This document shows, piece by piece, positions 35,001 to 63,881 of a DNA stretch of 64,000 bases; position 1 is the stretch's first letter, and each line of letters begins with the position of its first letter. The stretch covers positions 1,007,791-1,071,790 of the forward strand of contig JBGASG010000001.1 in assembly GCA_044229845.1 (NCBI GenBank), read 5' to 3'. The stretch is from Candidatus Obscuribacteraceae bacterium. GTDB lineage: Bacteria > Cyanobacteriota > Vampirovibrionia > Obscuribacterales > Obscuribacteraceae. Below the pieces are notes generated by a model that worked only from the letters and a program-made list of their open reading frames with translations, was not told where the DNA came from and ran no database searches. The position numbers and the translations under genes are program-made.

Positions 35001-38000
35001 CATACATGCTAACGGATGACTCGTTCAGTCGTTCCCATAATTGCTCCTTCTCTGCGAGCGGTAACAAGATCTTTTGTCACTTGGGCTGGGGAGTCGGTGC
35101 GTTCTGGGCTAACTACTCAGGCAACACGACAGCCGGGACCAGCGCTGTGACCGATCAAACCCAATCGCTGTACGAGTGGAACGTACTTGGTTATCCCACC
35201 AAAGTCACCGATCCCGCCGGGCGCGAGATTTCCTACGAGTACGCCGCAAACAATATTGATTTGGAGGAAATTCACGAAACTCGCGACAGCAATGACTTCG
35301 TCCTTGCGACTTTTACATATAACAGCCAGCACCTGCCGCTGACAAAAATAGACGGCTCAGGACAAGAGACCGACATGACATACAATGTCTTCGGGCAGCT
35401 CACCTCTGTCACGGATACCCTGTCTAATGTGACGACGTACGAATATACCTCAACGGAGACAGCCACCATTGGCGGCACCATCAGCTCGGGCAACCAGGCA
35501 AGCATCACCGTGTCTGATCCGGATCTGCCTGGTGGCTCGGAGACGGTATCTCACACCGCTACGCCGGGGCAAACGGCTAGCAACGTCGCTGCATCATTGG
35601 CTTCCAATATCAATGGCAATACAGATCTGCAGACCCTCGGCGTTTCGGCGAGTGCAAGTGGTGCAGACTTGACCATCAAGTCTGTTTCGGTCAACGCGAC
35701 GAGCTATAGCCAGGCGGTAACTGGCGGCGTGACCGTCTCCCTGTCGCCGGTCGCCTATGGCTTCCTGACAAAAATAACCGGTCCGCTTCAAGAAGACGAT
35801 GTCACAACCCTGGTCTGGAATGAAAACGGAACGCTCGCGTCAAGCACGGATGCGGAAGGTTACACATTGTCGTTTGACTACGATGACATGGATCGTTTGG
35901 TCAAAACGACATTTCCTGATCAGACCACGCAGCAGATAGTGTTCCAAGACCTTGATGCGATCTTCTTCATAGATAGACTGGGGAGGACCACACAACGGTC
36001 ATTCGACAACATGGACCAGCTCGCATTCGAGATTGATCCGCTGGGCAGAAAGACATCCTATAACTGGTGCTCTTGTGGATCTTTGAGCACACTAGTCGAT
36101 GCTGTTGGACACACAACGACCTGGAATCACGATTTACAGGGACGAGTCATTGAAAAAATCCTGGAGGACGGTTCAACCACAAAGTACATCTGGGAAGCCA
36201 ATCGCAGCGTGCTTCAACTGAAGCGCGACGCTCTTGGACAAGAATCACAGTACTATCACAATTGGGACGGCAGTTTAAATTCCGTCCACTACGAAAATGC
36301 GGTGAACGCCACGTCCACCGTTCTCAATACGTACGACATGCATTTCAACCGTCTGATTCAAGCCCGCAATGGCTGGGGCACCTACGATTACGAATACAAC
36401 GATTACATTACTGACCCGACCGATCCTCCCATCACAGGTGGTGGCAGGCTGGCGACGATTACAAATACCGTTATCCCGAATTCCGACATAGCTTTTGAAT
36501 ATGACGAAATGGGAAGAACGACAAACCGCTCCATAGATGGTGCAAACAATTCCATCGATTGGGTTTACGATGGAATGTCTCGGGTCCTTTCAGAGACGAA
36601 CGAACTCGGGCAATTCGACTTCACCTATGTGGATGATGGCGTCGGCGTTTCCAAAGGGCAATCACGGCTCGCCAGCATCGCTTATCCGAATGGTCAAACG
36701 ACCAACTTCGATTGGTACGAAAACGATCAAGATCAACGCTTACGCGAGATAAAGAACTTAGATCCAAATTCGCAAGCTCTCTCGCAATTCAACTACGCGC
36801 AAGATCCTTCGGGACAGATCACCCGTTGGATGCAACAGCAGAAGAGTCGACACCTCGGTTTCGGACTTGATTACGATTCCGCAGGTCAACTCACCGGGGC
36901 GGTCAGTGGCAAGGGCGTTCTGCCCGCACCATTCGCAGACCAGCATTTCTTCTCGTACGACTCCGCTGCCAATCGCACCGGCGTGCAAACCAGCCAGGTC
37001 CAAAATCTGGTTATCGCTGGCAGTAAGACCACCAGTGATGTCATCACTGTCACGGCAACTGACAGCGGTCTGAGCGGCGGCACTGAAGCGGTCGCGTACA
37101 CAGTGCTTTCAGGAGACACGTTAACGACGATTGCGGCCAATCTGGCTGCAACGATTACTGCAAACTCCGATTGCCAGTCGGTCGGCATCGATGCCGTTTC
37201 GAGCGGCACAACCGTGACGATCAGATCGAAGTCACCGAATGTGACTACCTTTGCGACGAGCTTGAGTGGTGGTGCGACAGAAACCGCCAGCCTTGGTGTG
37301 AATGCCGCCGTGCATAACGCCACTATCGGAGGAACACCAACCACGAGCGACGTTGTTCAAATAACTGTCCACGACCCAGCTCTCGGCGGCGGTTCGACCA
37401 GCGTCAGCCGCACCGTCCAGGGCGGGGACACGTTGACCTCAATTGCGACTGCACTAACTTCCTCTATAAATGGAAGCGGCAGCCTCTCCGGCGCCGGCAT
37501 CACCGCTACATCTAATGGACCTGTGATCGCGATCCAGTCGCTCTCTCCGAATGTGACAACGTTCACGAAATCAGTGACGGGCGCAGGCACGGAAACCGTG
37601 GCTATGGGTCCAAGCCTCAACGGCACAGTCAAAGCATTGATTGCCGGGAGTAAGACAACATCAGATGTCTTAACGCTCACCGTTTTCGATCCGGGGCTAT
37701 CCGGCGGGTCTAAGGGTGTTTCGTACACAGTCCAAAGCGGAGACAACCTGACCTCTATCGCGAGCGGGTTCGCCTCCGCAATCAACGCGGACACGGATCT
37801 GCAAGGCATAGGCGTAACAGCCAGTGCCTCAAGCACCACGCTGACCGTGACATCCGTGTCTCGCAACGCCACCAGCTATCTTCCGTCGAGAAGTAGCAGC
37901 GCAACCGAAACCATTCTCTGGGACCTCCCAGCGAACGGCACGGTGACGGCTGTCATTGGCGGGACCAAGACAACAGGCAATGTACTCACGATAACGACCT

Positions 38001-39583
38001 ACGACGCTGGCTTGGCCGGCGGCTCTAAGGCCGTAAATTACACGGTCCAGAGCGGCGACACGCTGAATTCCATTGCTTCGGGAGTTGCGACCAACATCAA
38101 TGCCGACACGGACCTCCAAGGGGTAAGTGTGTCCGCTGTTGCGGTCACTCCGACCTCTGGCGTCTCGGTCGTCAACCTGATTTCAGCGTCCAAGAACGCG
38201 ACCACATATGCCAAGTCCCTGAGCGGAGGAGCTACCGAGACGATTGCGCTAAGCAAAAACGTCGGGGTTTCTCAAGCCACATTCAACAATGTGAACGAGC
38301 TGACCGGGGTTTCTGCCGGTGGCAACGCCCGATTCCAAGGAAACACGGACAGACCGGTCTTGCCGGTCACCGTGGCAGGCAATGCCGTTGACATGCCGAC
38401 ATCCCAGAGTTTCTCTGGAAATGCAGCTCTGTCGTCTGGCAGTAACAGCGTCTCTGTAAGCGCAACCGCCGGAGGCGGAAGCGGCACAACCACGAACGCG
38501 CACAAGCTGGAAGTGGTTGGTGCGGGCACTCAAACGCTCACCTTCGATGACAACGGCAACATGACCAGTGATGGTACGAATACCTTCGTATGGGACGCGG
38601 AAAACCGTTTGATTCAGATCACGTATCCAAGCGCGAACAACAAGACTGAGTTCACGTACTCGCCGACTGGGGGCCGGGTCAAGATTGTCGAGACGGTCTC
38701 GGGCTCTGTGACTTCGACGAAGCAATTTGTTAGCGGGGAGGAGCGTGATGGAAGTGGCAATGTGACTAAAATGTTTTTCTCGCAAGGAGTACAGGACGGA
38801 GCGGATAGCTACTTCTATACAAAGGACCACTTAGGCTCCATCCGCGCACTAGTGGATGATTCGGGAATTGTTCAGGGGGCATTCGCTTTCGATCCCTATG
38901 GCAGATCAACCCGACTTGAGGGCACCGTCGATAGTGATTTTGGATTTGCTGGCATGTATCTGCACGCCAGAAGCGGGCTGGGACTGACAGCGTTCAGAGC
39001 ATACAGCTCAACCTATGCACAGTGGTTGAGTCGAGATCCTGTTGCATCGGCTGGCGATTCATATACCTACGCGGGAAATAGACCCACAATAGCGAAGGAT
39101 CCATTGGGGCTGCTTTATACGCTCGAGATTGATCCTTCGGGAACAGAGGTTTGGATCACGCTGCCATTAAGTTTTGAGGGCGACGGGGTCTCGCAGGATC
39201 GCATCAATCAATACATCCAAGGGATTGAATCCACCTGGTCTAACCAGTTTGGAAAATACAATGTCCACATGAAAGTAGTTCAGCCGCCTAAGGGGCAACC
39301 GTGTAATTCCATCTCTTTGCGAAAGTTTGGTCGACGGTCAAAGAGCAGTTACGAAAAATCAAATGGTAAATGGATTAACTGGATTATGGACTTGATGGGA
39401 CCAGGATGGTCGGCGGCGCATGAAGCCGGGCATCTAATGGGGTTGGACGACACCTACTTTTTCATTGGCGACGTTGGCATTCCAGGAACAGGGTCCGACG
39501 ATATCATGGGTGGCAAGCCAGGGTCCAAGCCGAATGAAGGTGTAATTCAGCAAATTATCAACAACTCTACACCGATACCGTGA
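32060..39583 (+). CDS. Full-length Rhs/YD-repeat polymorphic toxin (Rhs1): signal peptide, C39-peptidase-like domain, inserted repeat domains, HExxH metallopeptidase tip
   Basis: FRCGP...MHWKAGHY (C39-like); YD repeats; core end WLSRDPV...DPLGL; tip AAHEAGHLMGLDD; RBS AAGGAG. Confidence 0.92.
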   Translation: MFRRVNRRQIFRQVTSSLMTLLIAYPQVVVPVVAAEPPHPARRSVHAPKKKPHHPIGAVSAQERAAMATARKHQFVLSAAPTDAEIFRSRAFSEPLVPMAGSPVDGENGELAKALIAFKAKNDLEDVSAITAFMDQHPNSRWNAALALNVGLICRETGFISRALVLLKRAWDESKKRNGEAESRIGQRAISELLFLEGTIGRLAEMKAGLLDIGDRPMVGSNRERVDAARDAVQVMEKAPGVAFRCGPRAVQTLLEQKQGAPVPADSFIRSAQSTSKGNSLLEVKQLAERGGLQMQVAKRAPGAEVLLPAVMHWKAGHYGALTASAGDKFHVEDPTFDRNGPLWISKTAIDSESDGFFLVRAGQLPAGWQSVSNEEAATVFGKGYMQTSNENKSSSAPIVSFAPPGKHVWAISVPSQSPSKTPSNTASPPQSSNPGDPSDDDSCTVGKGAHNFEAQDWNGNWTDITPMAVADCWAMQCELKISDVPLGYNLPIGPAMGFSVNYNQNEIEQPTTFTFSNLGPNWSTNWVSWISVDGSDKATVHLRGGGVEPHIYSGNSGDPYSPDLYSQADIEVPSAGVYHRMLADGSIEVFDLDDGNDNFFMTEVIDSSGNSTTIQYDVDFRIASVTDMNGNVSTFDHASNNPLDSDFYLISAIHDPFGRSCSFFYDGNGFLETITDLVGIESSFTYDVGTGFIESMTTPYGTSSFDSYSITAGYIYPGRGLSISYPDGTSSVIEHTLDHENETHYWDREAMARYPNDPTNRIFSHCRKTTWFAEGFSANVAPIARASKNPLESQIAYTYPNQIFSGFYDTLNRPSAITQRNDYNLKARFSITGTITPGDILSVRIWNNLLPGTVNTVSYTVQSGDTANDILEELGDLVNNDSEFLKRGIYAEMDDGYLVVTPEDVYYSYPQALTSGGATETFTAELEQDWSRSPVSIVFGGTPTAGDIVYLHSAYPPTYPVFSYTVVSGDTLETIAQKVAYMLTDDSFSRSHNCSFSASGNKIFCHLGWGVGAFWANYSGNTTAGTSAVTDQTQSLYEWNVLGYPTKVTDPAGREISYEYAANNIDLEEIHETRDSNDFVLATFTYNSQHLPLTKIDGSGQETDMTYNVFGQLTSVTDTLSNVTTYEYTSTETATIGGTISSGNQASITVSDPDLPGGSETVSHTATPGQTASNVAASLASNINGNTDLQTLGVSASASGADLTIKSVSVNATSYSQAVTGGVTVSLSPVAYGFLTKITGPLQEDDVTTLVWNENGTLASSTDAEGYTLSFDYDDMDRLVKTTFPDQTTQQIVFQDLDAIFFIDRLGRTTQRSFDNMDQLAFEIDPLGRKTSYNWCSCGSLSTLVDAVGHTTTWNHDLQGRVIEKILEDGSTTKYIWEANRSVLQLKRDALGQESQYYHNWDGSLNSVHYENAVNATSTVLNTYDMHFNRLIQARNGWGTYDYEYNDYITDPTDPPITGGGRLATITNTVIPNSDIAFEYDEMGRTTNRSIDGANNSIDWVYDGMSRVLSETNELGQFDFTYVDDGVGVSKGQSRLASIAYPNGQTTNFDWYENDQDQRLREIKNLDPNSQALSQFNYAQDPSGQITRWMQQQKSRHLGFGLDYDSAGQLTGAVSGKGVLPAPFADQHFFSYDSAANRTGVQTSQVQNLVIAGSKTTSDVITVTATDSGLSGGTEAVAYTVLSGDTLTTIAANLAATITANSDCQSVGIDAVSSGTTVTIRSKSPNVTTFATSLSGGATETASLGVNAAVHNATIGGTPTTSDVVQITVHDPALGGGSTSVSRTVQGGDTLTSIATALTSSINGSGSLSGAGITATSNGPVIAIQSLSPNVTTFTKSVTGAGTETVAMGPSLNGTVKALIAGSKTTSDVLTLTVFDPGLSGGSKGVSYTVQSGDNLTSIASGFASAINADTDLQGIGVTASASSTTLTVTSVSRNATSYLPSRSSSATETILWDLPANGTVTAVIGGTKTTGNVLTITTYDAGLAGGSKAVNYTVQSGDTLNSIASGVATNINADTDLQGVSVSAVAVTPTSGVSVVNLISASKNATTYAKSLSGGATETIALSKNVGVSQATFNNVNELTGVSAGGNARFQGNTDRPVLPVTVAGNAVDMPTSQSFSGNAALSSGSNSVSVSATAGGGSGTTTNAHKLEVVGAGTQTLTFDDNGNMTSDGTNTFVWDAENRLIQITYPSANNKTEFTYSPTGGRVKIVETVSGSVTSTKQFVSGEERDGSGNVTKMFFSQGVQDGADSYFYTKDHLGSIRALVDDSGIVQGAFAFDPYGRSTRLEGTVDSDFGFAGMYLHARSGLGLTAFRAYSSTYAQWLSRDPVASAGDSYTYAGNRPTIAKDPLGLLYTLEIDPSGTEVWITLPLSFEGDGVSQDRINQYIQGIESTWSNQFGKYNVHMKVVQPPKGQPCNSISLRKFGRRSKSSYEKSNGKWINWIMDLMGPGWSAAHEAGHLMGLDDTYFFIGDVGIPGTGSDDIMGGKPGSKPNEGVIQQIINNSTPIP

Positions 39584-40034
39584 ACTTAGAGGATGCGACA
39601 CAACGTTTTGTCTTCAGAATCGCTAGCCGGAGCAGTAGTGTTATCCCAATGATGGTGGAAACTATCAGAGTCAGAAGCGCTACACCCCAGCTATCTGAAG
39701 CAACCCAAGGCACATGATTTCTGTTCATAATCGTAATCGTGCTCTGGCGAAACTGCCAGGGCACGTGCACATACATGCAATCTGAAACAGGACGACCACT
39801 GAACTGGACTGACCACAGCTCTTGCAGATTGCAGGTAGAGGCATCCGCAAATCCCACGCGCTCGATCATCTTGGCTGATTGCGCATTCGAAATTAACGCC
39901 CTGAAATTGGCATAGTCAAGGCGGCGGCCATGCTGGGTAGGATCGTGCAACCAAAGGCAAGCCCACGCAATGACAATAGCAAGAGAACTCAAGCCAATCA
40001 GACGCCGCCACTTTCGCACCATCGCATCTTTCAT
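39567..40034 (-). CDS. Two-TM hypothetical protein convergent with Rhs1 (possible partner or immunity protein)
   Basis: N- and C-terminal hydrophobic helices; overlaps the Rhs1 stop region. Confidence 0.5.
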   Translation of the reverse strand: MKDAMVRKWRRLIGLSSLAIVIAWACLWLHDPTQHGRRLDYANFRALISNAQSAKMIERVGFADASTCNLQELWSVQFSGRPVSDCMYVHVPWQFRQSTITIMNRNHVPWVASDSWGVALLTLIVSTIIGITLLLRLAILKTKRCVASSKFTVSV

Positions 40035-40531: not shown

Positions 40532-40622
40532 CGCCTACCCTGCGCCTACCGTTTTGACTTCGCCCCAATATCACTACTGCCGCCTACCGTCGCCTACTTT
40601 TAATCTGCCTACCGCGCCTACC
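40532..40622 (+). repeat. Six YGCCTAC(C/T) direct repeats in three pairs (integrase 1 arm-type sites)
   Basis: Copies start at 40532, 40543, 40581, 40591, 40606 and 40615, directly upstream of int1. Confidence 0.75.
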
Positions 40623-40641: not shown

Positions 40642-41883
40642 ATGCCCAGACTGACCGCCAACTTCATAAACACAAAAGTAGAAATGCCCGGACCTGGCAA
40701 AACCCTCTTCTACAGGGACTCTGAGCTTACCGGCTTCGGTCTGAAAGTGACCAGCACCAAGATGACTTACTTCGCTGAGGCCAGGGTGAATGGATGTAGC
40801 CGAAGAGTCACGCTTGGTAATGCAAAGTTATCACCACCTGAAGAAGCCAGAAAAATGGCATTAGCGATATTAGGGAAGATGGCAGCCGGTCATGATCCGA
40901 CGAAGGAGAAGCAGCGGCGCAAACGTGTGTCACTTACCTTGGGTGAGGCGTTCGATGAGTACATGGCGGCAAAGACGCTTCGTCCGAATACGGTTGCATC
41001 GTTCAATCGAGTGATGAATCAGAACCTAGGTGACTGGCTCGCCAAGCCAGTTACCTCCATCACTCGCAGCATGGTGCTGGAGCGGTACAGCCAGCTGGGC
41101 AGTGGCAGCAAGAAGGGAACATCCGGCAAAGCCAATGCCAATCTGACGATGCAGGTCTTGCGGTCCGTCCTCAATTACGTCTCCTACAAATATGCAGAGC
41201 AGGGTGAGCCGCTGATCGCCGATAACCCGGTTCGGGTCCTCCGGCAGACAAAGGCCTGGCACCGGATTCCTCAACGGCAGGGAATCATTCCAGATCACAA
41301 ACTTCGAGACTGGGTTTTGTCAGTTTTGTCACTAAGGAATCCCGCCGCTCGTGACTATCATCTCGTGCTCTTGTTCACAGGATTGCGGAGAAACGAAGGC
41401 GCTCAACTTGAGTGGCGTGATGTTGATTTGGAGGCGAAGACATTGACCATCAGGGCCGAGAACAACAAGAGCGCCAGGGAAGCAAGGCTACCGTTGAGCG
41501 ACTTCCTGTACGAGTTGTTTGCTCGCAGATTCGCGGAAAACAATGGATCTAGTTTTGTATTCGCTGGATGGAAAGGAAAGGGACGGTACTACGGGTGCTA
41601 CCAATCGCTTAGAAAAATGCGTGAGCAATCTGGATGCGATTTCATTTTGCACGATATAAGGCGGACGTTCCTGACCATGGCAGAGCGGCTGGACATTCCG
41701 CACTACGCACTGAAGAAACTGGCCAACCACACGATTTACGGTGATGTTACCGGCTCCTACCTCGTGATCGATGTCGAGCGCTTGCGTGAACCGATGCAGA
41801 AAATCACAGACCGGTTTCTGGAATTGATCGGCGAGATAGCGACACCCGGCACTAGAAATGTCCCAGAATCGTCTAACCGGTAA
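40642..41883 (+). CDS. Tyrosine integrase with an N-terminal arm-binding (DUF4102-like) domain (int1)
   Basis: YRDSELTGFGLKVT arm domain; TGLRRNE, HDIRRT and NH...TGSY catalytic residues intact; RBS GGAGG. Confidence 0.93.
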   Translation: MPRLTANFINTKVEMPGPGKTLFYRDSELTGFGLKVTSTKMTYFAEARVNGCSRRVTLGNAKLSPPEEARKMALAILGKMAAGHDPTKEKQRRKRVSLTLGEAFDEYMAAKTLRPNTVASFNRVMNQNLGDWLAKPVTSITRSMVLERYSQLGSGSKKGTSGKANANLTMQVLRSVLNYVSYKYAEQGEPLIADNPVRVLRQTKAWHRIPQRQGIIPDHKLRDWVLSVLSLRNPAARDYHLVLLFTGLRRNEGAQLEWRDVDLEAKTLTIRAENNKSAREARLPLSDFLYELFARRFAENNGSSFVFAGWKGKGRYYGCYQSLRKMREQSGCDFILHDIRRTFLTMAERLDIPHYALKKLANHTIYGDVTGSYLVIDVERLREPMQKITDRFLELIGEIATPGTRNVPESSNR

Positions 41884-42070: not shown

Positions 42071-43066
42071 ATGGGTTTCGCTGGTCTCCCGGTTGCATTC
42101 GGTGTGCCGCGCCGTTCGCGGATATCGCGAGCCTTTGCCGAAGCGGTAAGCCGTCTGGAACTGAACCCTGACAGAGTTGCCGAGGCATCTCAACATTATG
42201 GCGGTATCAAGGAGTTTATCGAAAGTGCTCTTCCTGGCGTTCGAGTGACGCAAGTCGGCTCATTCCAGCGACAAACTAAAATTCGTCCCGTCAGTTCTCA
42301 TCGGCTGCGCAACTTGCTTATAGATGCAGAGATCACGCCGATAGACTTGGACATTCTTGTTTCCTTTGGTCCGGTTACGCGTTGGGTAAATGACGGCAGT
42401 GCCAGTGGTCCCGAGGACCTGCTTCGAGTGCTCTACGCCGCAGTGCGGTCAAGCAAGCGTTATCAGGTGCTGGAGCCAACGATTGATTCGCCGGTCATCA
42501 CCATGTCGTATTCGAACGAGTTCAGCATGGAACTGATTCCATGCACGGTAGATCAAGTCTCATCATTGCCTCCGAGAATTTGTAGACCATATCTGGTGCC
42601 GTACAGCGGTGGATGGAAATGGGCTGACTACGATTACGACGCTGAACTGATAACGCGTTGCAACAAGCAAAGCGGTGGAAAACTGATCCCATCGATTAAG
42701 TTGTGCAAAGGCTTCGTGCGCAACCATGGATTGCCCTTCAAGTCGTTCCACGTTGAGATTTTGTGCGTCGCAGTTTTTGACCGGCTGATGCAAGCGTACA
42801 GGTATCATTGGTCTTACGAAGAATTTTTTGTGGAGTTCCTGAAGTTACTGCCAGTGGCACTCTTCGAACCGGCTAAATTAGCTGGGAGCTATTCCGACGA
42901 GCAAATGGTCGCCGGTCAAGATGCCTCTCAAAGCTTCCTCCTAGTCATGAAAATCGCAGAAGCTGCTGGAAGTTTGCTAGTACTGCCTGACACGGAAAAC
43001 ACAGTGTCTCTCTGGTCGCAGTTCTACGGGTATCCCTTTCCTTCGAGCACGCTGTGGCTGAGCTAA
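42071..43066 (+). CDS. SMODS/CD-NTase-like nucleotidyltransferase
   Basis: GSFQRQTKIRP...DLDIL, ELIP, IKLCKGF and FKSFHVEIL match the SMODS/cGAS-DncV-like pattern. Confidence 0.8.
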   Translation: MGFAGLPVAFGVPRRSRISRAFAEAVSRLELNPDRVAEASQHYGGIKEFIESALPGVRVTQVGSFQRQTKIRPVSSHRLRNLLIDAEITPIDLDILVSFGPVTRWVNDGSASGPEDLLRVLYAAVRSSKRYQVLEPTIDSPVITMSYSNEFSMELIPCTVDQVSSLPPRICRPYLVPYSGGWKWADYDYDAELITRCNKQSGGKLIPSIKLCKGFVRNHGLPFKSFHVEILCVAVFDRLMQAYRYHWSYEEFFVEFLKLLPVALFEPAKLAGSYSDEQMVAGQDASQSFLLVMKIAEAAGSLLVLPDTENTVSLWSQFYGYPFPSSTLWLS

Positions 43067-43593
43067 GGTTAGATGATTTGCTTTACCAGTGTCGCTCTCT
43101 GGAAGAGCAGTGTCTTTTCGCTGCGCAAGGTCATTACGAAACGGCAAAGACGAAAAAGAAGTTGCGGCTGATCTGTGTCGTGATACCGGCACTCATTGCA
43201 GCAGCCGGGTCCGGGGCAGCCTTGATGGGAGGAATTATCCCGTCAAATTTGCAGTCAACAGTGAGCGTTATTACCGCCCTTGCTGCGATAGTTGCGGCAC
43301 TTTCCGCCTTGTTTGAAGTCGATGGACAATCTTCCAAGCATCTCTACATTGGACACCAGTTCAATGCCCTGAGGTTGGAAGTAAATCACCTCCATAAGAT
43401 AGAAGCTTTGGCAATGCCACTGACTGAAACGAGTGCACGGTTAGAGCGATACCTAGTCGAATACAGGACGTTGGTTAGAACGAGCGATCTGACCGACCAA
43501 AAGGCTTTCGAACGAGCAAGAAAGGCCATCGAGGAGGGCATCCACGAGCCTTCTGAAATCGCTCCTTTGAAGCTGCCGCCCCCATCGAACTAA
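43054..43593 (+). CDS. SLATT domain two-TM effector
   Basis: EEQCLFAAQGHYETAK, two TM helices, FERARKAIEEG; overlaps the NTase by 13 nt. Confidence 0.78.
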   Translation: MAELRLDDLLYQCRSLEEQCLFAAQGHYETAKTKKKLRLICVVIPALIAAAGSGAALMGGIIPSNLQSTVSVITALAAIVAALSALFEVDGQSSKHLYIGHQFNALRLEVNHLHKIEALAMPLTETSARLERYLVEYRTLVRTSDLTDQKAFERARKAIEEGIHEPSEIAPLKLPPPSN

Positions 43594-46898: not shown

Positions 46899-46930
46899 CT
46901 TTATTGTCTTGTCTCCGTTATATTTGCAAA

Positions 46931-47062: not shown

Positions 47063-47064
47063 TG

Positions 47065-48714: not shown

Positions 48715-48792
48715 ATTGAGATTCCCTTTTTATCTTGCCGCTGCCCGTTGCAGCGGCTTTCTGCTTTTGGTTTAGCACCGTAACCGGTGCCC

Positions 48793-54287: not shown

Positions 54288-54836
54288 GTGACACGGGTGC
54301 AGAACTCAATTCTAACGCTTGATATAGAACTGTCTGCGTGGATTCTTGCAGACGGAAATTATGAGTTCGTTTCATTCGCAGTTGGAAAGACGGCTAAGTT
54401 CGCTTTGGAGTTTTGCCAGAAAGGTTACTCCCTGAGTACTGAACCTTTGTCGCTCGTCGCATCAACCACACCTTCCTTTTACGAGGCTACAGCTGACGTC
54501 GTTTATCGTGATGAATCAGCCTGGATATTGGACTTCGGACCCGTATCGGCGTACAGGACCGGCGCAAGCCCCGTGGACTTTGGCCAGCGGATCAAGAGTG
54601 AGATTAGTCTGCACATCGACCCATTTCAGTACTACGAGTCCTTATCGAAACTTGAGAATATTCCGCCGCTGATCTATGAGTGGCAATTAGTCGGTATCGA
54701 TATGTGCGTGAATGCGCCAGAGCAATTTATTGCAGTGGAGAAAATCGACCTTCAGAGTGACCGGCGAAACGGATCAACTGATAGTTACATTCTTCATTGT
54801 TCTCTTCAATCCGAAACAGCGACCAAGGTTTTCTAA
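54288..54836 (+). CDS. Candidate immunity protein for the Rhs2 tip
   Basis: 182-aa acidic ORF co-oriented directly after the toxin tip. Confidence 0.6.
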   Translation: MTRVQNSILTLDIELSAWILADGNYEFVSFAVGKTAKFALEFCQKGYSLSTEPLSLVASTTPSFYEATADVVYRDESAWILDFGPVSAYRTGASPVDFGQRIKSEISLHIDPFQYYESLSKLENIPPLIYEWQLVGIDMCVNAPEQFIAVEKIDLQSDRRNGSTDSYILHCSLQSETATKVF

Positions 54837-54942
54837 AGGTGCCTTCACCCACCGTTTGGAAGCGGATTGCTCTGCACTGCGAGCGAGTCGGACCGATTGA
54901 AGTCGCGATGTTATTGTCCAGCTTCAGCCTTACTTAGCGGCA

Positions 54943-56240
54943 GCAGGTTAAAGCAGGATAACATCCCGCTAAAAGCACACCCCGTGCCCATTACGCCGTT
55001 TGCAATTACTTTGCAGTTGTTATCGGCGGCAGCAATGTCTCGCACGGCAGACCCTTTCATAGTTAAAGCGGGAATGGACGATCCAGCGATAGCTCCCTGC
55101 AGTCCGGGTTCCAGGCAAATCAGAACGCGAAAATACTTCGCCGCCGCTCGGCGGAGGCGATGGTTGCCATGTTGCGACAGAGCCTGGCGTCGAGCCACCA
55201 GCGGCAGCACGAGCCTTCCAGGTCCCTTGGCGAGGCCACGGCGACGGTCAGCGAGCAGCATGCGCGCATGTTCGTCATTCTTTTTTCAATCCTGTGAGCG
55301 AAGGCGAACAGCAGGATAAAGCGATGATTTCATTTCGGCGTATGCACCGCAGGCGGTGCCTTGCCAGGGTTTCGGAAAGTACCCCACGTAATGCCGGGTA
55401 CCCCAAACAGGCTCCTGGAGGCCGCTGAACGGCAGTCGCCCATCAGTGCTGTGATTGAGGCACCATACTCCTGGCTTTCTCTTCCTTTCACGGCTTGCAC
55501 CTCGATGGCTCTAGCTCTCCGGCACTATATGTGGTGGCGTTCCAGGAACCATCCGCGATTTCCTGCGTCAACGGGAACTGACGAGCTTACGCGTCATCTC
55601 TCCTCGCTCTCAATTGAGGAGCCCAGCAAGCGACTTGCTTGCATCAACGTCCAAGCGCACTGCGCGCGTGTTCAGAGGTATGAATGCGTTTAAAACAAAT
55701 CTGTGTTCGCTTCCCCAAGGAGATGACAGAAGAAGTCACCCGGCTGGCCAAAGCGAACGGACTCACGCCCTCGGAAATGGTTCGTGTGCTGGTCCGCGAC
55801 GGAATCGTCGTCCGGGCGGAGGCAACTACCAACTCCCAGTTCGACTACGTAGAGAAGCGTCTGCGGCGAATGGAAGACCGATTCGCTGGCTGGATGATCA
55901 AACTCAGCAAAGCCATCTCGATGGTCTGGTTCTTCGTCGAGGAACTTGCGCTCTACGAAGTCGATGAAAACGACCAAATAGCATTGAAGGAAGCCGCAAA
56001 AGGCTTCGCGAGGCAATTTCTGCAACAAAAGACTTCCAGCCATCTCAAAGATGACCAGGAGCATCTGGACCAGGAATAGCAAGCCCGAGGAAGCCACCGA
56101 AAGCGTACCGCGCACTCAAACGGTGCCAAGGGCGGTTTCAGTGACTCCAAGGCTGCAATCAGCCTGACTTTCGGCGGTTCCACACCAGCCGCCGGAATCG
56201 ATCCGCTAAGCATCCATCCAGTAGTAGCGCGCGCCTGCGC
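54943..56240 (+). repeat. 1.3-kb module, copy A (conserved non-coding region + RHH gene)
   Basis: Colinear with 62596-63881 from GCAGGTTAAAGCAGGATAAC to GTAGCGCG(CG)CCTGCGC. Confidence 0.9.
55684..56079 (+). CDS. RHH (CopG/TrwA/MobC-like) protein, copy A
   Basis: QICVRFPKEMTEEVTRLAKANGLTPSEMVRVLVRDG; 131 aa; near-identical paralog at 63337. Confidence 0.7.
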   Translation: MRLKQICVRFPKEMTEEVTRLAKANGLTPSEMVRVLVRDGIVVRAEATTNSQFDYVEKRLRRMEDRFAGWMIKLSKAISMVWFFVEELALYEVDENDQIALKEAAKGFARQFLQQKTSSHLKDDQEHLDQE

Positions 56241-56380
56241 CATGCCCGGCTCAAGCCAAGCGGCGGACCCCTAGTGTCAAGGCTAAACCGCTTCGCGGTG
56301 GCTCCTTCGTCGCCAGCCTTGCACACCAGGGACCCGGTCCGCCGCTATTCGGGCATGAGGGCATGGCGTCTTGGCGCGCG
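56228..56380. other. Long GC-rich branched hairpin (sso/ssi-like)
   Basis: Nested complementary arms: CGCGCGCC/GGCGCGCG, CATGCCCG/CGGGCATG, AGCGGCGGACC/GGTCCGCCGCT and CAAGGCT/AGCCTTG, with inner TTCG-loop hairpins. Confidence 0.7.
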
Positions 56381-56453: not shown

Positions 56454-56473
56454 GCATACATTGTGCATACAAG
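56454..56473 (+). repeat. Paired GCATACA repeat upstream of the original int2 start (arm-type site)
   Basis: GCATACA-TTGT-GCATACA-AG; recurs at 60481-60500. Confidence 0.7.
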
Positions 56474-56585
56474 ACTTTTTTGCCCACCCCAAAATTCAAA
56501 GGCGCACGAATGCCCAAATGTGTGCGTCCGGTTCTTCACGTCCTAGGAAATTAAGGCGTGGCGTGGTTTCCTAAGGTAGTGAAAT

Positions 56586-58055
56586 TCAGGAGACTTTGTT
56601 TTGGTTTGGCGTCCACCGGTCCGGAAGAAGCTGCTCAAGCTCGCTGGTCTTCATGGAGTTGATGCGCGTAAACACGTCGGTGAGGTATGCACGTGGGTCG
56701 ATCTTGTTGCGCTTCGCAGAGGCAATGAGTCGGGAGAATGGCAATCGACTTACGCCAGCGTCCGAGCCTGCGAACGGAAGTGCCGATCAATCACAGAGTC
56801 TTTTTGATTTCTCACTTGCCTCAACGGCGTTGTTGTCGATAGTGATGGCAGGATCTTCGAAAGCGAGTGAGCGCCTGCCAGTGGTGAGAGCGTGTACAGT
56901 ACGGCGCGCATGACTGGATGTTTAGGAATTTCGATTTCTCACTAAGAGAGAGAACCAGGGCGTGAAGCTGCCCAACGAGTGGCTTCGATCGTGCTCGTCG
57001 CTCGGCCAGCTTCACTCCGCAGGACTCCGCGCGTCTTGATCTCCGCTTCGATGTCGTAAAGTTCGTGATAGATGTCCAGGATCGGGTTACAGCTTTGAGG
57101 ATCAATCACCAGCACTTCGTAGTACTTCTGCGCGAATGGGCGTTTAACCGGCTCGACTTTGATTGCCATCCTCGTACAGCTTGTCGAAGCCTTTGCGGCG
57201 TCCGGCTTGTACGATGCCGACAAACTGTTCGAGGAATGCAATGTTCCTGGTGAAGGTTGATCCGGAGAGAAGTCGAAGAGGCTACAAACTGCGATTCTCA
57301 TCCCCGCGGTAAACAGTCATTTGCCTTTGCGCAACGTGGCTTCCGGTCTCCGGATCTTGGTTCGCTGTCGTCCGTCTGTACGAGAAAGAGCAGGCGTCGA
57401 GTAACGAGATCGTACAGGGTTCAACAATAAACGAGGCAGCCAGCATCCAGTCGCCTGAGTGGACCGCGGTATGGTGGCACTCGCGTTTATCTTTTCTGTC
57501 TGTAGTTTGGAAGCCCGTCTGCAAGCTTGTTCACACAGACGTCCGCGAGCAGTCAGGTCCGGCGTAGCTGCAGGAATTGGCGAACAAGGTTTTTCTGCAG
57601 TGACGATGTACTTCCTACACTTCGGGCACGCCCGAACTTCCTGCTCATGCTGCGAATGTTTGAGCGTTTGAGTCAAGCGCTCCAACTGGTGGGTCCTTCG
57701 GTGCCGACGAAAACAGTGTCAACGATGCAGTGGGAGACAGGTTGCATCTTCCGGCTTAACGGTATGCGGAACAATCTCCGGGAAGGTTTTGCGGGAAGAT
57801 AATGCTTGATGTGATTGCGTGGTTTTGGAGTCGACTTTTCCTTAGCCGTCGGAGACAATTCGACAGCGGTGCCGGCGCGGATTGTGTCGTTCAGTCTTGT
57901 TGCCAAAGTCCTTGCGATTCAATTTTTGAATTGGACGATAAGGATGTCGAGTTTTTCTGGAGATCCTTCGCAGAGCGCGCGCAGCTCGCGCGACTGGCGT
58001 CATTAGCTTCTTGGAGCTGCTTCTCCATACGGTCAAAAAGCACGGAGCCGGGCAT
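56586..58055 (-). pseudogene. tnpC: IS66 transposase TnpC, multiply frameshifted
   Basis: Fragments FGNKTER, ACPKCRKYIVTAEKPCSPIP, TIDNNAVE and ELEQLLPDRW lie in different frames. Confidence 0.82.
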
Positions 58056-58339
58056 TTTTCTTTTTCTGAGGCGCGTATTTCGGAATGTTCGGATTTTGGC
58101 ACGGCAAATACCTGAGTGGTACCGTATATGGGTACTACTCAGGGTGACAAATTGCAGCTTAGATCTGGCTGATCCAGCTTACACCACACGCGGCGGCGAT
58201 ACCAGCGTCCGCATAGGAGGTATTATCGGCACACTCCGCGTTTCTCGGAAGTGCCACCGGATGGCGATCGGATATTTTGCTCACCTCACGGCGGGTACTT
58301 TTGGGGTGGCTTTTGGCTTGATCCCGGGCTTTCCCGGCG

Positions 58340-58679
58340 GTAGCGCTTCGGTCTATTCCTGGGAATCGGTGTCGATGCCGCCAGAAGCAGGAGAAGGTCG
58401 GATCGTTCCATCTCCGGTAGCCTGCTGCGCCGTTCCACAGGCCACCTCTGGAAAACGGAATGTTCCGACTTCGGACGCTTTGCAAAATGGCAAAGCCGTC
58501 GGGAATCCCTGAAGAATTTTGATGAAGTCCCGCGCCGACTGCGGAGAAACAGCGATCGAAATGGATCCGCGAATTACGAGCGATTGAACAAGTCGAACAG
58601 TCCGTCGAACGAACGCCGCATGTCGACCGGCTTTGTGCAAACGAAAATCCGCACCAGTGGTGACAGAAGAGTTAAACAC
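58340..58679 (-). pseudogene. tnpB: IS66 accessory TnpB, frameshifted
   Basis: IFVCTKPVDMRRSFDGL, IKIL, FCK..EVGTFRFP, DLLLLL and GID fragments. Confidence 0.8.
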
Positions 58680-59119
58680 TACGATTTCTCAGTGTGGTGA
58701 TTACCGAAGCGAGGAAGTCTGGAAGAACCTGACGGCGATCGAAAGAGTGATACCACTGGGTAGAATGATTTCCAACACCGTTAGTTGCGGCGGAAAGATC
58801 CTCTAACCTGCGTAGCTCGACCAGCCTCACTTCCCGGAATTCGAACTCCTGGGGGCCCCGGACCTCGCGTGGCAGAGACGGTCCACTTCCGTTTCCGTCC
58901 CGTCCCCGGTGTTTGCGACGCTGCAAGGAACTGATCCAGAGTGGATTTCGTGTTGCAAGCCGCCGGTAACCTTCACGAAGGGTAAGTCATACCTCCCCGT
59001 GCAACTCCAGATCGCCAGCATTGTTGGGAGAGACGCCGAGATCTCGGCAGCTTCGTTCCGTGTCAGGAGTACGTCGCCGCGTCGCCCGGGTACCTATCCG
59101 TTTTTCTTGCTCGTGCCAT
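58672..59119 (-). pseudogene. IS66 accessory TnpA remnant
   Basis: Position between the left IR and tnpB; CRDLGVSPN and QVLPDFLASVITTLR fragments. Confidence 0.5.
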
Positions 59120-59223
59120 GGCTTGCCCTCGGATACTCTTAGTGCAAGCGCTCTTCGCAGCTTCGAACTGGCAGCGCCGCATGTGCAATTAGCAAACCAC
59201 GGCGACGCAAAATTGCCTACGAC

Positions 59224-60447
59224 GTGGACTACCGGACGCACACGCCCAAATTGACCAAATTTTTCGTGGCGAATGCCAAGCCCCCAGAGAAGGGGCAGAT
59301 TATCTATCGCGATACGGCGGTAGTCGGCTTAGGTCTGCGCGTTACGCCCACCGGCTGCAAGAGCTATGTGGTAGAAGGTCGGGTGAACGGAGTGTTCCGC
59401 CGAATCAGCCTGGGCAGAGAAAATGAGTTGACGCCGACCGCTGCGCGAAAGAAGGCGCAGAAACTGCTGGCGACGTTGGCCGCCGGCAAGGACCCCACCA
59501 TCGAGAGAGCTAAGAAGAAGATCCGAGGAGTGACGTTGCAGGAAGTTTTTGAGCACTACCTGTCCGTGCGAAACCTGCGTCCGAACACAGTGCGGACCTA
59601 TAGAAACATGTTGCCGCGGTGCGTGGGTGACTGGCTCGCGCTCCCGGTGGTAGCGATTACCAGAGAGATGGTCGAGCAGCGTCACATGGATCTGCGCCGC
59701 ACCACGAGACAAGGCACAACAGGCGAAGCCCAGGCGAACACCGTCATGCACATTCTGGGTACGCTTCTCAACTTCGCTGCCGCTAACTACGAGATCGACG
59801 GCAAGCCAATCATCCTCGTCAATCCGATCAAGCGCCTGTCGAATAACCGCCGCTGGTATCCCGAGCAGCGTCGACAAACAATCATCCCGGACCACAAGTT
59901 GCCAGCCTGGTACAACGCCGTCATGTCGCTTCGGCATGAAACCGTCAGGGACTACCTGTTGCTGCTGCTGTTCACTGGGCTTCGCCGCAACGAGGCAGCC
60001 ACCCTGACCTGGTCTGACATCGATTTCGAGTCGAAGGTCCTAGTCATTCGTGCCACTATAGCGAAGAACGGCAAAGAACATCGATTGCCGCTAAGCGACT
60101 TTCTCTTCGAACTGCTGCAGCGCCGCTATCCAGAGAGAGGCGAATCGGAGTTTGTTTTCCCGGGGCGCGGCAGCAAGGGACACCTGGTCGATTCCGATCA
60201 TGTGATTCGCGGTGTAGCCGAGAAAGCGCAGTGCCCCTTCACGCTCCACGATTGTCGCAGAACTTTTTTGACGGTCGCGGAGAGGCTGGCGCTATCCTAT
60301 GTGGTGCTCAAGAAACTCGCGAATCACTCAGGAAAAAATGACACCACCTTCGGATATGTTGTGGTGGATGTCGAAAGACTTCGTGAGCCCATGCAAACCA
60401 TCACAAATGAATTTCTAAGACTGTGTAAGCCCAGCATCGCAGAGTAA
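59224..60447 (+). CDS. Tyrosine integrase int2 (paralog of int1); native start at 56510 separated by IS66
   Basis: YRDTAVVGLGLRVT arm domain; TGLRRNE, HDCRRT and NHSG...TFGY intact. Removing the IS and one TSD copy restores ATG CCC AAA TTG ACC (MPKLT; int1 is MPRLT). Confidence 0.9.
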   Translation: MDYRTHTPKLTKFFVANAKPPEKGQIIYRDTAVVGLGLRVTPTGCKSYVVEGRVNGVFRRISLGRENELTPTAARKKAQKLLATLAAGKDPTIERAKKKIRGVTLQEVFEHYLSVRNLRPNTVRTYRNMLPRCVGDWLALPVVAITREMVEQRHMDLRRTTRQGTTGEAQANTVMHILGTLLNFAAANYEIDGKPIILVNPIKRLSNNRRWYPEQRRQTIIPDHKLPAWYNAVMSLRHETVRDYLLLLLFTGLRRNEAATLTWSDIDFESKVLVIRATIAKNGKEHRLPLSDFLFELLQRRYPERGESEFVFPGRGSKGHLVDSDHVIRGVAEKAQCPFTLHDCRRTFLTVAERLALSYVVLKKLANHSGKNDTTFGYVVVDVERLREPMQTITNEFLRLCKPSIAE

Positions 60448-60480: not shown

Positions 60481-60500
60481 GCATACAATGAGCTTACAAG
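60481..60500 (+). repeat. Second int2-type paired repeat, downstream of int2
   Basis: GCATACAATGAGCTTACAAG matches 56454-56473 at 17 of 20 positions. Confidence 0.7.
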
Positions 60501-60583: not shown

Positions 60584-61512
60584 AGATCACTTATCCCGGA
60601 ATGAATAATAAATCGGAGTTCACCTATTCGCCGACCGGCGGCAGGATGAGGATTGTCGAGACTGTTTCCGGAAGCGTGACAAGCACGAAGCAGTTTATTA
60701 ACGGGGAAGAACGCGATGGCAGCGGCAACGTGACCAAGCAGTTTTTCTCGCGCGGCCAAAGAAACGGCTCCACAAACTACTTTTATGCGAAGGATCATCT
60801 TGGGTCCGTCCGTAGTATGGCCGACAACAGCGGAGCGGCAGTGTCTGATCGGGCATTTGACTCATTCGGAAACGCCCGGGTCATCAACGAGAGCGAAACG
60901 CCTGACTTCGGATATGCCGGAATGTATGTGCACGGAAGGAGTGGTCTCAACCTAACTACGCACAGGGCCTACAGTGCTTCGTTGTCTAGATGGCTATCGA
61001 GAGATCCGCTCAGCGAAGCCGTTTCTGGAAATCTATATAGCTATGTGTCGAATAACCCGGTCAATGCCGTGGATCCTAGCGGGCTACTGCAAATACTAGG
61101 CGTGGAGATCGCGGAACCATTCACTCCATACGTCAACGCACTGGTTAATTCTCATCCGGAGGTTACGAGTGACATGCGCAAATGCGTCATAAATAGACTA
61201 CGGCATAGCATCGGATCAGCAAAGCTTTCGAACATCTATGGTAACCCTGTTCAAACGATCGCCGGCGGAGTTGGATTCGAAGGATTCGAATTAGAGGTAG
61301 GGATCTACGGCACAATAGTCGGATCGTTGGTCAATATTTCGTTTCACGACACCAGGATTCTCAGGCGTTCGTCCGGTAACCTGAATGAGTGGTTCAGTAA
61401 GGATACGCTTGAAGACCTTGATGCGGACGTGGTAGGCGCGTTATGGGGGAACTTACCAACTGAGTTCTTAATTCAAGATGCAATCAAGAAGTGCAAACCA
61501 TGCAAAAAGTAG
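60584..61512 (+). pseudogene. 5'-truncated Rhs3 (orphan tip module)
   Basis: Homology begins at AGATCACTTATCCCGGAATG (ITYPGMNNK); WLSRDPL...DPSGL; distinct tip RLRHSIGSAKLS...EDLDADVVG. Confidence 0.88.
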
Positions 61513-61518
61513 CGGTGA

Positions 61519-62472
61519 TTACCGGCTTTCGTTTGGCAGTCCATCGAAGAGTTCAACAGACTTTACCTCACCTTGTTCGTCCTGCCCAGCAGCATCAACG
61601 TCCTCAGCGATTCCATCGAAAAGCAGGACGCTCGCGGCACCAACTTTCATCACTTGAGGTCCCAGCCTCGCGTAGTGCGATTTTCCGATAATTTCCGATC
61701 TTTTGGACTCACAATCAAGTATCTCAACGACGCGCGTTGACGAGTAGAGCGCGTCTGCAAGCTGCTCGGAAGACAACCCACAGACGATGATGACTTTAGA
61801 CTTCCCGACCTCAATCATGGCGTGCTGGGAGCGGGGAATCGACAAATCTCCACAAGAACTAAATGTATTGCTGATTGGATCAAAAATCTCGCACGACGCA
61901 AGAGGATGTCTGTAATTCTTTTGATAGCCGCCAGACACGACAACCTTTCCGTTTGGTAAAGTCGTCGCGGCAGCATCAATCCTTGAGTATATCATCACGG
62001 GTCCGAGTCGCACAGGACCGCCGCTAGCAGGTACAATCCAGCTGCAATTCAACGGCTGGACCTTTTTGGAATCAGCCAAATATCCACCAGCAATCAAAGT
62101 ATCGCCGTTCTTTAGTTGGCTCCACGCGAAGCGCCCTACCGGCTTGGTCTTGCTTTCAAATGGCAGAGATACGGCCCCCCACGAATCCGCCGCGCCCAAC
62201 TTTAGGGCTAGTGCTTTCTGTCTGGAAGCTGGAGTTTCGCCTAAAGTTTTGTCATTCAAACTGATGGTCGCAGCCTCATGAAATGACCATTTCCCTTGTG
62301 CTGATATCGCTTTTCCGAAGGCATCCACTAAAGAAATCTCAGATGGTGGGACTTGCCGAAAAGCGTTTGGGAGGCGTTCAACAAACTTTGCCTGTCGCAA
62401 CGACGGACCGCACCCACTCAAAAATGATAGAGCTACAAAGGTTGCGGAGAATCTTAGGACAAAGTTTTGCAT
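61519..62472 (-). CDS. Kelch-repeat (beta-propeller) lipoprotein, convergent with Rhs3
   Basis: Lipobox LSGC; Kelch motifs LIAGGY, VVVSGGY and CEIFDP. Confidence 0.8.
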   Translation of the reverse strand: MQNFVLRFSATFVALSFLSGCGPSLRQAKFVERLPNAFRQVPPSEISLVDAFGKAISAQGKWSFHEAATISLNDKTLGETPASRQKALALKLGAADSWGAVSLPFESKTKPVGRFAWSQLKNGDTLIAGGYLADSKKVQPLNCSWIVPASGGPVRLGPVMIYSRIDAAATTLPNGKVVVSGGYQKNYRHPLASCEIFDPISNTFSSCGDLSIPRSQHAMIEVGKSKVIIVCGLSSEQLADALYSSTRVVEILDCESKRSEIIGKSHYARLGPQVMKVGAASVLLFDGIAEDVDAAGQDEQGEVKSVELFDGLPNESR

Positions 62473-62595
62473 TTCTCCGACTAGTATAAACCGCCGCAGC
62501 TGCTAAATTACCGCACCGATTTTGCCGCTTCTTGTTCAGTTTAAGGTCGGTGAAGAGCAGATGCGCGAGAAGCAATCCGCCTCTGCGCGCCCGCG

Positions 62596-63881
62596 GCAGG
62601 TTAAAGCAGGATAACATCCCGCTACAAGCCACACCCCGTGCCCATTACGCTGTTTGCAATTACTTTGTAGTTGTTATCGGCGGCACCAAGGTTTCGCACG
62701 TCGGAACCTTTCATCGTTAACGCGACAATGGACGATCCAGCGATAGCTCCCTACAGTCCGGGTTCCAGGCAACTCAGAACGCGAAAATACTTCGCCGCCG
62801 CTCGGCGGAGGCAATGGTTGCCATGTTGGGACAGGGCCTGGCGTCGAGCCGCCAGCGCAGCACGAGCCTTCCAGGTTCGCTTGGCGAGGCCGCGGCGACG
62901 GTCAATGTGCGAGCAGCATGTGCGCATGTTCGTCATTCTTTTCAATCCTGTGAGCTTTGGCGAGCAGCAGGATAAAGCGATGATTTCATTTTGGAGCAGG
63001 CACCACGGGCGGTGCCTTGCCATGGTTTCAGAAAGTACCCCACATAATGCCGGGTACTCGAAATAGGCTCCTGGTGACCGCAGAACGGCAGTCGCCAATC
63101 CCTGCTGCGTTCCAAACATCATGTCCCTATCTTTCTCTTCCTTTCCCTGAATTCACCTCGATGCCTGTGGTCATCCGACACTATATACGGTGGCATTCTG
63201 GGAACCATCCGCCGTTTCCCGCGTCAACGGGAACTGATGAGTTTACTCGTCATCCCTCCTCGACCCGTCGAGGAACCGGCAAGCACCCTGCTTGCATCAA
63301 CGTCCAAGCGCACTGCGCGCGTGTTCAGAGGTATGAATGCGTTTAACACAAATCTGTGTTCGCTTCCCCAAGGAGATGACAGAAGAAGTCACCCGGCTGG
63401 CGAAAGTGAACGGACTCACGCCCTCGGAAATGGTTCGTGAGCTGGTCCGCGACGGAATCGTCGTCCGGGCCGAGGCACTGACCAACTCTCAATTCGCCTA
63501 CGTAGAGAAACGTCTGCGGCGAATGGAAGACCGATTCGCTGGCTGGATGATCAAACTCAGCAAAGCCATTTCGATGGTCTGGTTCTTCGTCGAGGAACTT
63601 GCGCTCTACGAAGTCGATGAAAAGGACCAAATAGCATTGAAGGAAGCCGCAAAAAGCTTCGCGAGGCAATTTCTCCAACAAAAGACCTCCAGCCATCTCA
63701 AGGATGACCAGGAGCATGTGGACCAGGAGTAGCAAGCCTGAGGAAGCCACCGAAAGCGTACCACGCACTCAACGCTGCGCAAAGGCGGTTTCAATGGCTC
63801 CGAGCAGGCAATTAGCCTGACGTTCCGTGGTTCCACACCACGCCGACGGAAATGGACCTCCTGGAGGTAGCGCGCCTGCGC
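62596..63881 (+). repeat. 1.3-kb module, copy B
   Basis: Colinear with 54943-56240; homology stops at the base of the copy A hairpin. Confidence 0.9.
63337..63732 (+). CDS. RHH (CopG/TrwA/MobC-like) protein, copy B
   Basis: 131 aa, near-identical to 55684-56079. Confidence 0.7.
   Translation: MRLTQICVRFPKEMTEEVTRLAKVNGLTPSEMVRELVRDGIVVRAEALTNSQFAYVEKRLRRMEDRFAGWMIKLSKAISMVWFFVEELALYEVDEKDQIALKEAAKSFARQFLQQKTSSHLKDDQEHVDQE

Follow-up and report, generated by a model that had tools for sequence, protein, structure and literature searches.

According to the displacement model of rhs gene evolution, an intact rhs gene is followed by orphan tips, and an incoming tip on a circle pushes the old tip downstream (Jackson et al. 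2009, PMC2935791). The model depended on assumed stable circles and on homologous recombination, and it was remarked that an integrase was missing (PMC2935791). How rhs genes gain new tips yet keep strings of old ones has been an open question since 2009. Effector displacement in Vibrio cholerae likewise pushes modules downstream, and that study reports no evidence for an integrase (PMC5361080). In Snodgrassella and Gilliamella, integrase-like genes are found near rhs loci, and it was suggested that they aid toxin transfer (Steele et al. 2017, PMC5727410). The replacement blocks known from attP attachment (att) sites are up to ~250 bp long and restore the same product, and helper-embedded phage-inducible chromosomal islands (HE-PICIs) are described as having none (PMC10111431). 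Here, we describe an rhs locus with two integrase genes in a 64,000-nucleotide stretch of DNA (the window) from a Candidatus Obscuribacteraceae bacterium (genome G000, assembly GCA_044229845.1). The window is the terminal stretch of contig C1 (JBGASG010000001.1, positions 1,007,791 to 1,071,790).

The order of genes in the window is as given in the first-pass annotation: rhs1, partner gene, int1, rhs2 fragment, partner gene, ribbon-helix-helix (RHH) module, int2, rhs3 fragment, partner gene, and a second RHH module. The full-length rhs1 (32060..39583, + strand) encodes a protein of 2507 aa with an N-terminal C39-peptidase-like region, RHS/YD repeats, Rhs core, and tip 1; the YD/RHS repeats and the Rhs core followed by a variable tip after DPxG place it among the Rhs polymorphic toxins. 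The rhs2 and rhs3 fragments start abruptly at a WxYD core (51384) and an ITY core (60584), respectively. The first-pass annotation had proposed that these rhs junctions are att sites used for tip exchange, and comparative genomics supports this reading. We estimate at roughly 85% the probability, based on the sequence comparisons described below, that integrases of one clade integrate at fixed rhs codons, supply a new tip together with an immunity gene, and displace the old tip.

Homologues of the integrases were sought in sets of 61 and 104 related genomes, of which 22 and 31 gave matches, and in one scan each of a genome collection and a metagenome collection, which gave 80 and 77 loci. The 277 pooled integrase matches correspond to 204 distinct integrases. 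A FastTree phylogeny was calculated from 185 of them with at least 330 aa, and the 19 shorter ones were excluded. The closest relatives in the genome collection are from Candidatus Obscuribacterales/Melainabacteria, and a sequence search of the PDB matched only a XerA-like chain. Both int1 and int2 contain Arm-DNA-bind_3 (PF13356) and Phage_integrase (PF00589) domains above the cut-off, and the catalytic residues are invariant across 15 aligned integrases. The two proteins fall into a single clade, which comprises 75 arm-type tyrosine integrases (FastTree support 1.0). A match to the Rhs core is located within 12 kb of 59 of the 62 informative clade members and of none of the 110 integrases outside the clade (79 informative), as determined with a hidden Markov model that was built from these same cores and that very distant rhs genes could escape. 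In the proteobacterial outgroup, a tRNA gene was detected in 19 of the 37 loci scanned, and in 16 of these 19 a displaced copy of the tRNA 3' end is positioned 200-310 nt before the integrase gene. By this arrangement, the outgroup includes textbook tRNA islands with the integrase gene beside attR. Homologues at tRNA sites, which the first-pass annotation had regarded as speaking against att sites in rhs, were found only among these relatives outside the clade, where they show its ancestry and do not refute the reading. The window itself contains no tRNA gene and no match to Rfam. In one subclade (L119-L121 and L097), the integrase gene is divergent from rhs fragments of a distant type (27-30% identical to rhs1), and this arrangement recurs several times in G103.

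The junctions of the int2 type are precise to the base. The 87 ITY-type sites comprise 46 junctions and 39 intact cores; a false junction (L135) and one edge site were dropped, and WxYD rows L041, L144, and L108 were excluded as mislabelled by the search pattern. The 46 junctions are spread over 19 genome/contig groups, and all start at the same codon as the fragment at 60584, as expected for the homologues of int2. Identity to the intact core from the same genome changes from 0.31 at position -3 to 1.00 at position -2 (n = 32), and a residue that is T, D, or N agrees with that of the host core in 31 of the 32 junctions. The 60 nt to the left of the junctions have a median identity of 28% (29 groups). 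Because of the identity step, the matching residue, and the unrelated left flanks, the sequence to the right of the junctions tracks the host gene, and the left flanks do not go back to a single fusion. The mean identity to the core from the same genome is 0.82, compared with 0.61 to the cores of the 19 groups. A clade integrase is positioned up to 3 kb upstream of 38 of the 46 junctions. In the genome of the window, six int2-like genes are located on contigs C1, C13, C22, and C3 (three), the other five being 72-84% identical to int2. Downstream of each of the six, an rhs fragment begins at the ITY codon, within 139-183 nt for five of them and after 1.3 kb of cargo for the sixth.

Additional classes of junctions are located 63-66 nt (four cases) and 129-141 nt (six cases) to the left of the ITY core. 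Together with the WxYD class, at least four junction codons are used, and they differ by integrase subclade. The WxYD junction at 51384, from which rhs2 (51384..54235, + strand) is open to the end of tip 2, recurs next to int1 homologues in G088 (int1 identity 92%), G111 (59%), and G120 (54%). The first 1708 bp of the rhs2 fragment are 88% identical to 36558-38265 in rhs1. Contigs from the Logan collection cover 38338-51463 (run X8) and 53278-55149 (run X2), and both runs may be a source of the window DNA; since they span the first junction, it is not an assembly artefact. Public runs that contain window DNA are mainly sludge and bioreactor metagenomes.

It is very unlikely that an integrase was joined to an rhs fragment only once and is now a passenger, the tips being exchanged by RecA-type homologous recombination as in the model from 2009. 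The conserved core of ~500 bp in each fragment suffices for homologous recombination, identity is mosaic in rhs1/rhs2 and in G088, a hybrid in G001 suggests that such recombination happens, and the contig sets contain no circle. However, the junction position is base-exact between unrelated left flanks and a right side that follows the host rhs, at least four codons are tied to different subclades, the catalytic residues are invariant, and, as described below, units switch partners within 11-18 identical bases.

The repeats described in the first-pass annotation are real, and they co-vary with the integrase. The int2-type doubled 7-mer is present in the window solely at 56454..56471 (+ strand), before the int2 start codon, and at 60481..60498 (+ strand), 105 nt to the left of the ITY codon, where it may form an arm site (two copies, compared with 0.01 expected). 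Among the int2 alleles of the same genome the 7-mer varies, and within each allele the upstream copy agrees with the junction-side copy. The cognate doubled motif is positioned at a fixed distance from 25 of the 32 testable junctions, -103 to -110 in 18 of them and -123 to -126 in seven, and the position is kept even when 0.7-2.7 kb of cargo separates the motif from the integrase gene. The doubled-motif score is 11.4 for cognate, 9.8 for permuted, and 8.2 for shuffled motifs, in a set of kin sequences in which three rows are one element. Upstream of the int1 start codon, three doubled repeats of the int1 type (40532..40622, + strand; motifs at 40533-40622, with 0.00 expected) are kept in G001, G088, G111, and G120. 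Another putative arm site is located ~105 nt to the left of the junction at 51384 (51260..51278, + strand). The int1 8-mer recurs there in one exact copy, at 51271, whereas the partner copy at 51260 is degenerate. A second short motif, an inverted pair, flanks the junctions of the large elements with a Xer-like gene on their left side and also precedes int1 (51205-51245 and 40560-40575 in the window; L059, L130, L235).

Evidence for movement comes from three assemblies that are 99.5-100% identical. The order of units is core-A-core-B-core in L125 and L206, and B-core-A-core in L205. Unit A (5,489 bp) contains a tip, a partner gene, and an insertion sequence, and unit B (5,137 bp) a tip, a partner gene, a hairpin, an integrase gene, and two small genes. 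The right end of A is joined to two different tips and that of B to three, and the alternative partners share an exact block of 11-18 nt; in L205, B is truncated on its left by the end of the contig. In one assembly the 183-aa tip of A comes after an uninterrupted core, and in another it is displaced behind a junction. A shared block of this length is probably not enough for homologous recombination, nor for a false join by an assembler with the usual word sizes, and misassembly of the swapped units was rejected because the exact block has just 11-18 nt. The swapped order would result if a two-unit circle were excised at one core and re-entered at the other. Arrays with one integrase gene and several integrase-less orphan tips from a shared start position were observed in L148 (10981-19957), L216, and L040; it is possible that these tips are non-autonomous cassettes.

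The exchanged blocks also bear on the extent of the mobile unit. A simple disruption, in which the element reaches from just upstream of the integrase gene to attR, the intact rhs 3' end is rebuilt later by duplication or recombination, and the tips remain outside the mobile unit, has a minimal probability. It would account for the two motif sets flanking the integrase region and not the left core, and for the shared left boundaries at ~40379 upstream of int1 and ~56240 upstream of int2. However, no rhs 5' sequence abuts ~40379 or ~56240, and the blocks that move among L125, L205, and L206 reach from rhs core to rhs core and include tip and partner. Position 56240 was rejected as an att site: no rhs 5' part is beside it, and three copies have the end of an inserted 1.4-kb transposase element at this position. 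The int1-clade gene in G120 is divergent and 638 nt from the WxYD fragment, a geometry like that of the outgroup islands with the integrase gene beside attR. There, the upstream motifs follow the orientation of the integrase gene and the junction motif that of rhs, which fits an operator role for the repeats upstream of the integrase gene and speaks against a simple disruption. The repeats before the integrase genes may be operators or may act at a distance.

The layout of the int1 element in the first-pass annotation is correct, but a gene for a Xer-like tyrosine recombinase without an arm domain (50126..~51010, - strand), of a kind found at the right end of large elements, was overlooked. 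It is divergent from attR1, 370 nt from the junction at 51384. Where the flank is present, every close homologue detected (at least 58% identity) has an rhs junction at a distance of 180-430 nt (the window, G088, G111, two in G007, G106, L234, and L235), and the proximity would fit a reading in which this enzyme, rather than int1, makes or helps the crossover in rhs. We consider this unlikely, because the gene accompanies two junction codons, WxYD and TKTN, because an int1-clade gene accompanies the WxYD junction of G120, where a Xer-like match is absent, and because the repeat near 51384 is of the type found upstream of int1. More distant Xer-like homologues, in short loci, are not adjacent to junctions. 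The Xer-like gene may take part in the exchange or may instead resolve element dimers. If the Xer-like recombinase were responsible, the enzyme would change and the outcome of the tip swap would be the same.

Several observations weigh against integration by the clade integrases at fixed rhs codons. The core from the same genome ranks first among the 19 groups in just 19 of 32 junctions, at eight of the 46 ITY junctions no integrase gene is closer than 3 kb, seven of the 32 tested junctions lack a positioned cognate motif, and three of the 62 informative clade members (for example L051) have no rhs match. The p-value is overstated, because the sequences are related. An exact-pattern scan of the window found no cognate doubled motif to the right of the left cores at 36558 and 53328, and the second motif set is kilobases away from the core, unlike in the attP of HE-PICIs. 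In G001, the island of an int1 with 98% identity terminates at an ITY junction that has an arm of the int2 type, which breaks the rule of one integrase for one site; this join is best read as a deletion hybrid. The comparison of filled and empty sites envisaged in the first-pass annotation revealed the same unit end at different tips and a swapped order in near-identical assemblies, but no circle or empty-site joint was found in the contigs of four runs over 36300-56299, two of which are possibly source runs of the window, and rare forms are lost from contigs. Among the loose ends listed for these contigs, none at 36558, 51384, or 53328 was informative. An empty site for the window locus itself is also missing, since tips 1-3 are unmatched elsewhere.

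Integration at fixed codons would proceed as follows. The clade would be related to tRNA-targeting island integrases and retargeted to fixed codons in rhs genes of Obscuribacterales. The mobile unit would be a circle with one crossover core, an in-frame rhs 3' end that encodes the new tip, an immunity gene, optional cargo, the integrase gene, and an arm site ~105 (or 125) nt before the core. Crossover by the integrase at the matching core of a resident rhs gene would fuse the delivery part of the host to the incoming tip, and the old tip and its immunity gene would be shunted behind attR. Repeated rounds would build tandem arrays, which excision and re-integration would reorder. Applied to the window, this scheme would place a satellite-like int1 element of 14.8 kb in a WxYD core (36558/51384) and an int2 element of 4.5 kb (7.3 kb with an insertion sequence) in an ITY core (53328/60584). 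Each appears to be an integrated element, as a short core is shared by both ends and a 3' fragment of the target gene is displaced. It is fairly probable that the locus represents an active toxin-reprogramming mobilome, in which integrases are retargeted to at least four in-frame rhs sites, the attP replacement sequence is the payload (new toxin domain and immunity gene), and integrase-less tip cassettes are shuffled in trans, much as in an integron with its insertion site in a reading frame.

The putative attL of the int1 element (36558..36570, + strand) is a WxYD core between 9-bp inverted repeats, where homology to the fragment at 51384 begins. The gene of int1 (40642..41883, + strand), with an intact R-K-HxxR-H-Y catalytic set, is followed by cargo encoding a SMODS nucleotidyltransferase and a SLATT_4 effector (42071..43593, + strand). 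The pair resembles a cyclic oligonucleotide-based antiphage signalling system (CBASS), with matches to CBASS cyclase models below the cut-off. The cargo slot is variable, as other genes occupy it in the int1 island of G001. A satellite-like replication module (45984..49020, - strand), shared with the elements in G088 and G111, contains an archaeo-eukaryotic primase (AEP), an ATPase/helicase-like gene, and an excisionase-like helix-turn-helix gene (HTH_17). Integrase, excisionase-like, and primase-helicase genes are together characteristic of PICI-like satellites. No packaging gene was noted in a general scan of the open reading frames (ORFs) of the element, which was not a dedicated test for helper-phage packaging.

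The putative attL of the int2 element (53328..53338, + strand) is the ITY core in rhs2; the corresponding core in rhs1 (38616..38626, + strand) is unoccupied and may be a potential target of int2-type elements. The start and the interruption of int2 were missed in the first-pass annotation. The true start is at 56510, and this copy (56510..60447, + strand) is split after the third codon by an insertion sequence of 2,724 bp with an 8-bp target duplication (56520..59243), which we take to be IS66-like from its ORFs. More copies are present on contigs C3, C13, C22, and C20. A long conserved DNA hairpin (56238..56375, + strand; z = -5.8; no Rfam match) precedes 21 of 30 int2-clade genes, and by analogy with other examples it might be a single-strand origin or a promoter. 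A 1.4-kb transposase element, presumably IS110-like, is inserted at the same place just 5' of the hairpin in several int2 units (63882-64000 in the window, C13:40861-42240 and C3:88755-90068 in G000). Downstream of the junction, the displaced rhs3 fragment (60584..61512, + strand) ends with tip 3 (61084-61512).

RHH module 1 (54940..56197, + strand) contains a mobC/NikA-like gene (55684-56079) and is probably a relaxosome remnant without a relaxase. RHH module 2 (62593..63881, + strand; RHH gene 63337-63732) runs into the start of the 1.4-kb insert, which continues to the contig end. As this insert precedes int2 genes on C13 and C3, the array probably continues beyond the contig end. The RHH module was treated as a part of the elements in the first-pass annotation, but it is genus-specific and was rejected as a defining part: among 104 genomes, close copies are present only in G000 and G001. 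Distant RHH relatives precede relaxase-family genes in four of 11 loci, and the module therefore looks like a mobC remnant that may serve for mobilisation in trans. Searches for the TrwC and PF03432 relaxase families gave no match in the 88%-complete G000, and an origin of transfer was not located.

The tips are putative toxins, and their neighbours putative immunity proteins. Tip 1 (39143..39583, + strand, 146 aa) contains an HExxH motif and has weak matches of the M6/reprolysin type below the cut-off. Its partner (39567..40034, - strand) has no family, and its immunity role is suggested by position. Tip 2 (53819..54235, + strand, 138 aa) gave RNase A-like/EndoU leads at 0.87-0.88, which are leads only. 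A structure model supports binding of partner 2 (54288..54836, + strand) to tip 2, with a score of 0.88 compared with 0.32 for the best control, a contact agreement of 100%, and a partner pLDDT (predicted local distance difference test) of at least 88; in a calibration, 51 of 78 solved pairs and two of 108 mismatched pairs attained the mark used. The predicted interface includes His25 and His30 of the tip. Partner 3 (61519..62472, - strand) is a Kelch-repeat protein by family match and is the putative immunity protein to tip 3. Partners 1 and 3 are antisense to their own tips. The 70 tips compared are mostly unrelated to one another, and nine of 68 have any Pfam match (TseH, SLT, DUF6973 three times, and weak matches to Ntox34 and PLA2). 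Among the fetched loci, tips 1-3 have no match elsewhere except a 42% relative of tip 1.

A small CHB_HEX_C/Fn3-associated gene identified with Pfam (31566..32039, + strand) is positioned 5' of rhs1, and its homologues are found immediately before full rhs genes on C3 and C18. The N-terminus of these Rhs proteins (32060-33400 in the window) contains a C39-peptidase-like domain (PF03412 above the cut-off) and no PAAR match, and the internal repeats have partial LysM matches. Elsewhere in G000, two rhs/int2 arrays (C3:66463-76328 and C22:403437-412696) converge head-to-head on a copy of the insertion sequence that splits int2, and this copy disrupts an RHH gene; the arrangement suggests an inversion mediated by the insertion sequence. 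An ITY junction at C13:49700-51700 reads after ~15 nt into non-rhs DNA with pieces of reverse-transcriptase-like ORFs, and a similar piece (C22:402435-403430) precedes a C22 rhs fragment that starts 27 nt to the left of the core. We take these pieces to be from group II introns. On C18, a second rhs fragment (332050) starts at another codon (rhs1 1531) without an integrase, and a stretch of 100 bp further downstream (335433-335533) matches the left end of the int1 island. Another island on C1 (92279-100856, L007), not at rhs, contains a distant integrase (37-39% identity), an AEP primase, and a second integrase, and has no tRNA gene in 20 kb.

The locus resembles the system described in 2009 in having orphan tips after an intact rhs gene, but there the length of the core fragments is described as variable and no integrase is involved, whereas here the fragment starts fall into base-fixed classes tied to an integrase clade (PMC2935791). 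The passages available on the Snodgrassella and Gilliamella loci give no att site, junction, or mechanism (PMC5727410). Features shared with tyrosine-integrase islands in tRNA genes and icd and with HE-PICIs are the in-gene target, the displaced 3' fragment at attR, a doubled motif that precedes the crossover by a fixed distance, and one clade that is retargeted to several sites (PMC10111431). The HE-PICIs have a second doubled motif at +132, near which none was found in the window (PMC10111431). Unlike the known replacement blocks, the block here is coding DNA of 0.9-3 kb that brings a different C-terminal domain and a partner gene.

The enzymology, integration with att replacement, is of a known kind. 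In-frame delivery of a new toxin domain, at several codons and in reorderable arrays, was not found in print: a full-text search of papers available without subscription turned up no account of rhs tips being exchanged by an integrase, in agreement with the novelty claimed in the first-pass annotation. Now that an enzyme family can be named, the sites are precise to the base, and the arm repeats have defined positions, the question of tip acquisition becomes a plasmid assay. The integrase alleles, whose arm sites co-vary and which have several targets in coding sequence, are a natural set.

Integrons and the recombinase-associated acquired interbacterial defence clusters of Bacteroidales (rAID-1) likewise form recombinase-linked arrays of modules, in which older modules are pushed downstream and reordered, but they use one fixed recombinase, whole-gene cassettes, and intergenic sites (10.1101/471110). 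Here, in contrast, the site is in-frame inside a toxin gene, and most units have their own arm-type integrase. Integrons and rAID-1 have a single IntI- or XerD-type recombinase upstream of the cassettes, whereas the arm-type integrases are repeated per unit, yet the arrays in L148 and L216 have one integrase and several orphan tips. The R64 shufflon (Rci/PilV) and the invertases of phage tail fibres also exchange the C-terminus of a single protein by site-specific recombination, but they do so by inverting resident segments. In contrast, the mobile units described here would integrate and bring new tips. They would extend the principle of att replacement from the repair of a target gene to its reprogramming, with a dedicated enzyme for toxin swapping that has so far been ascribed to general recombination.

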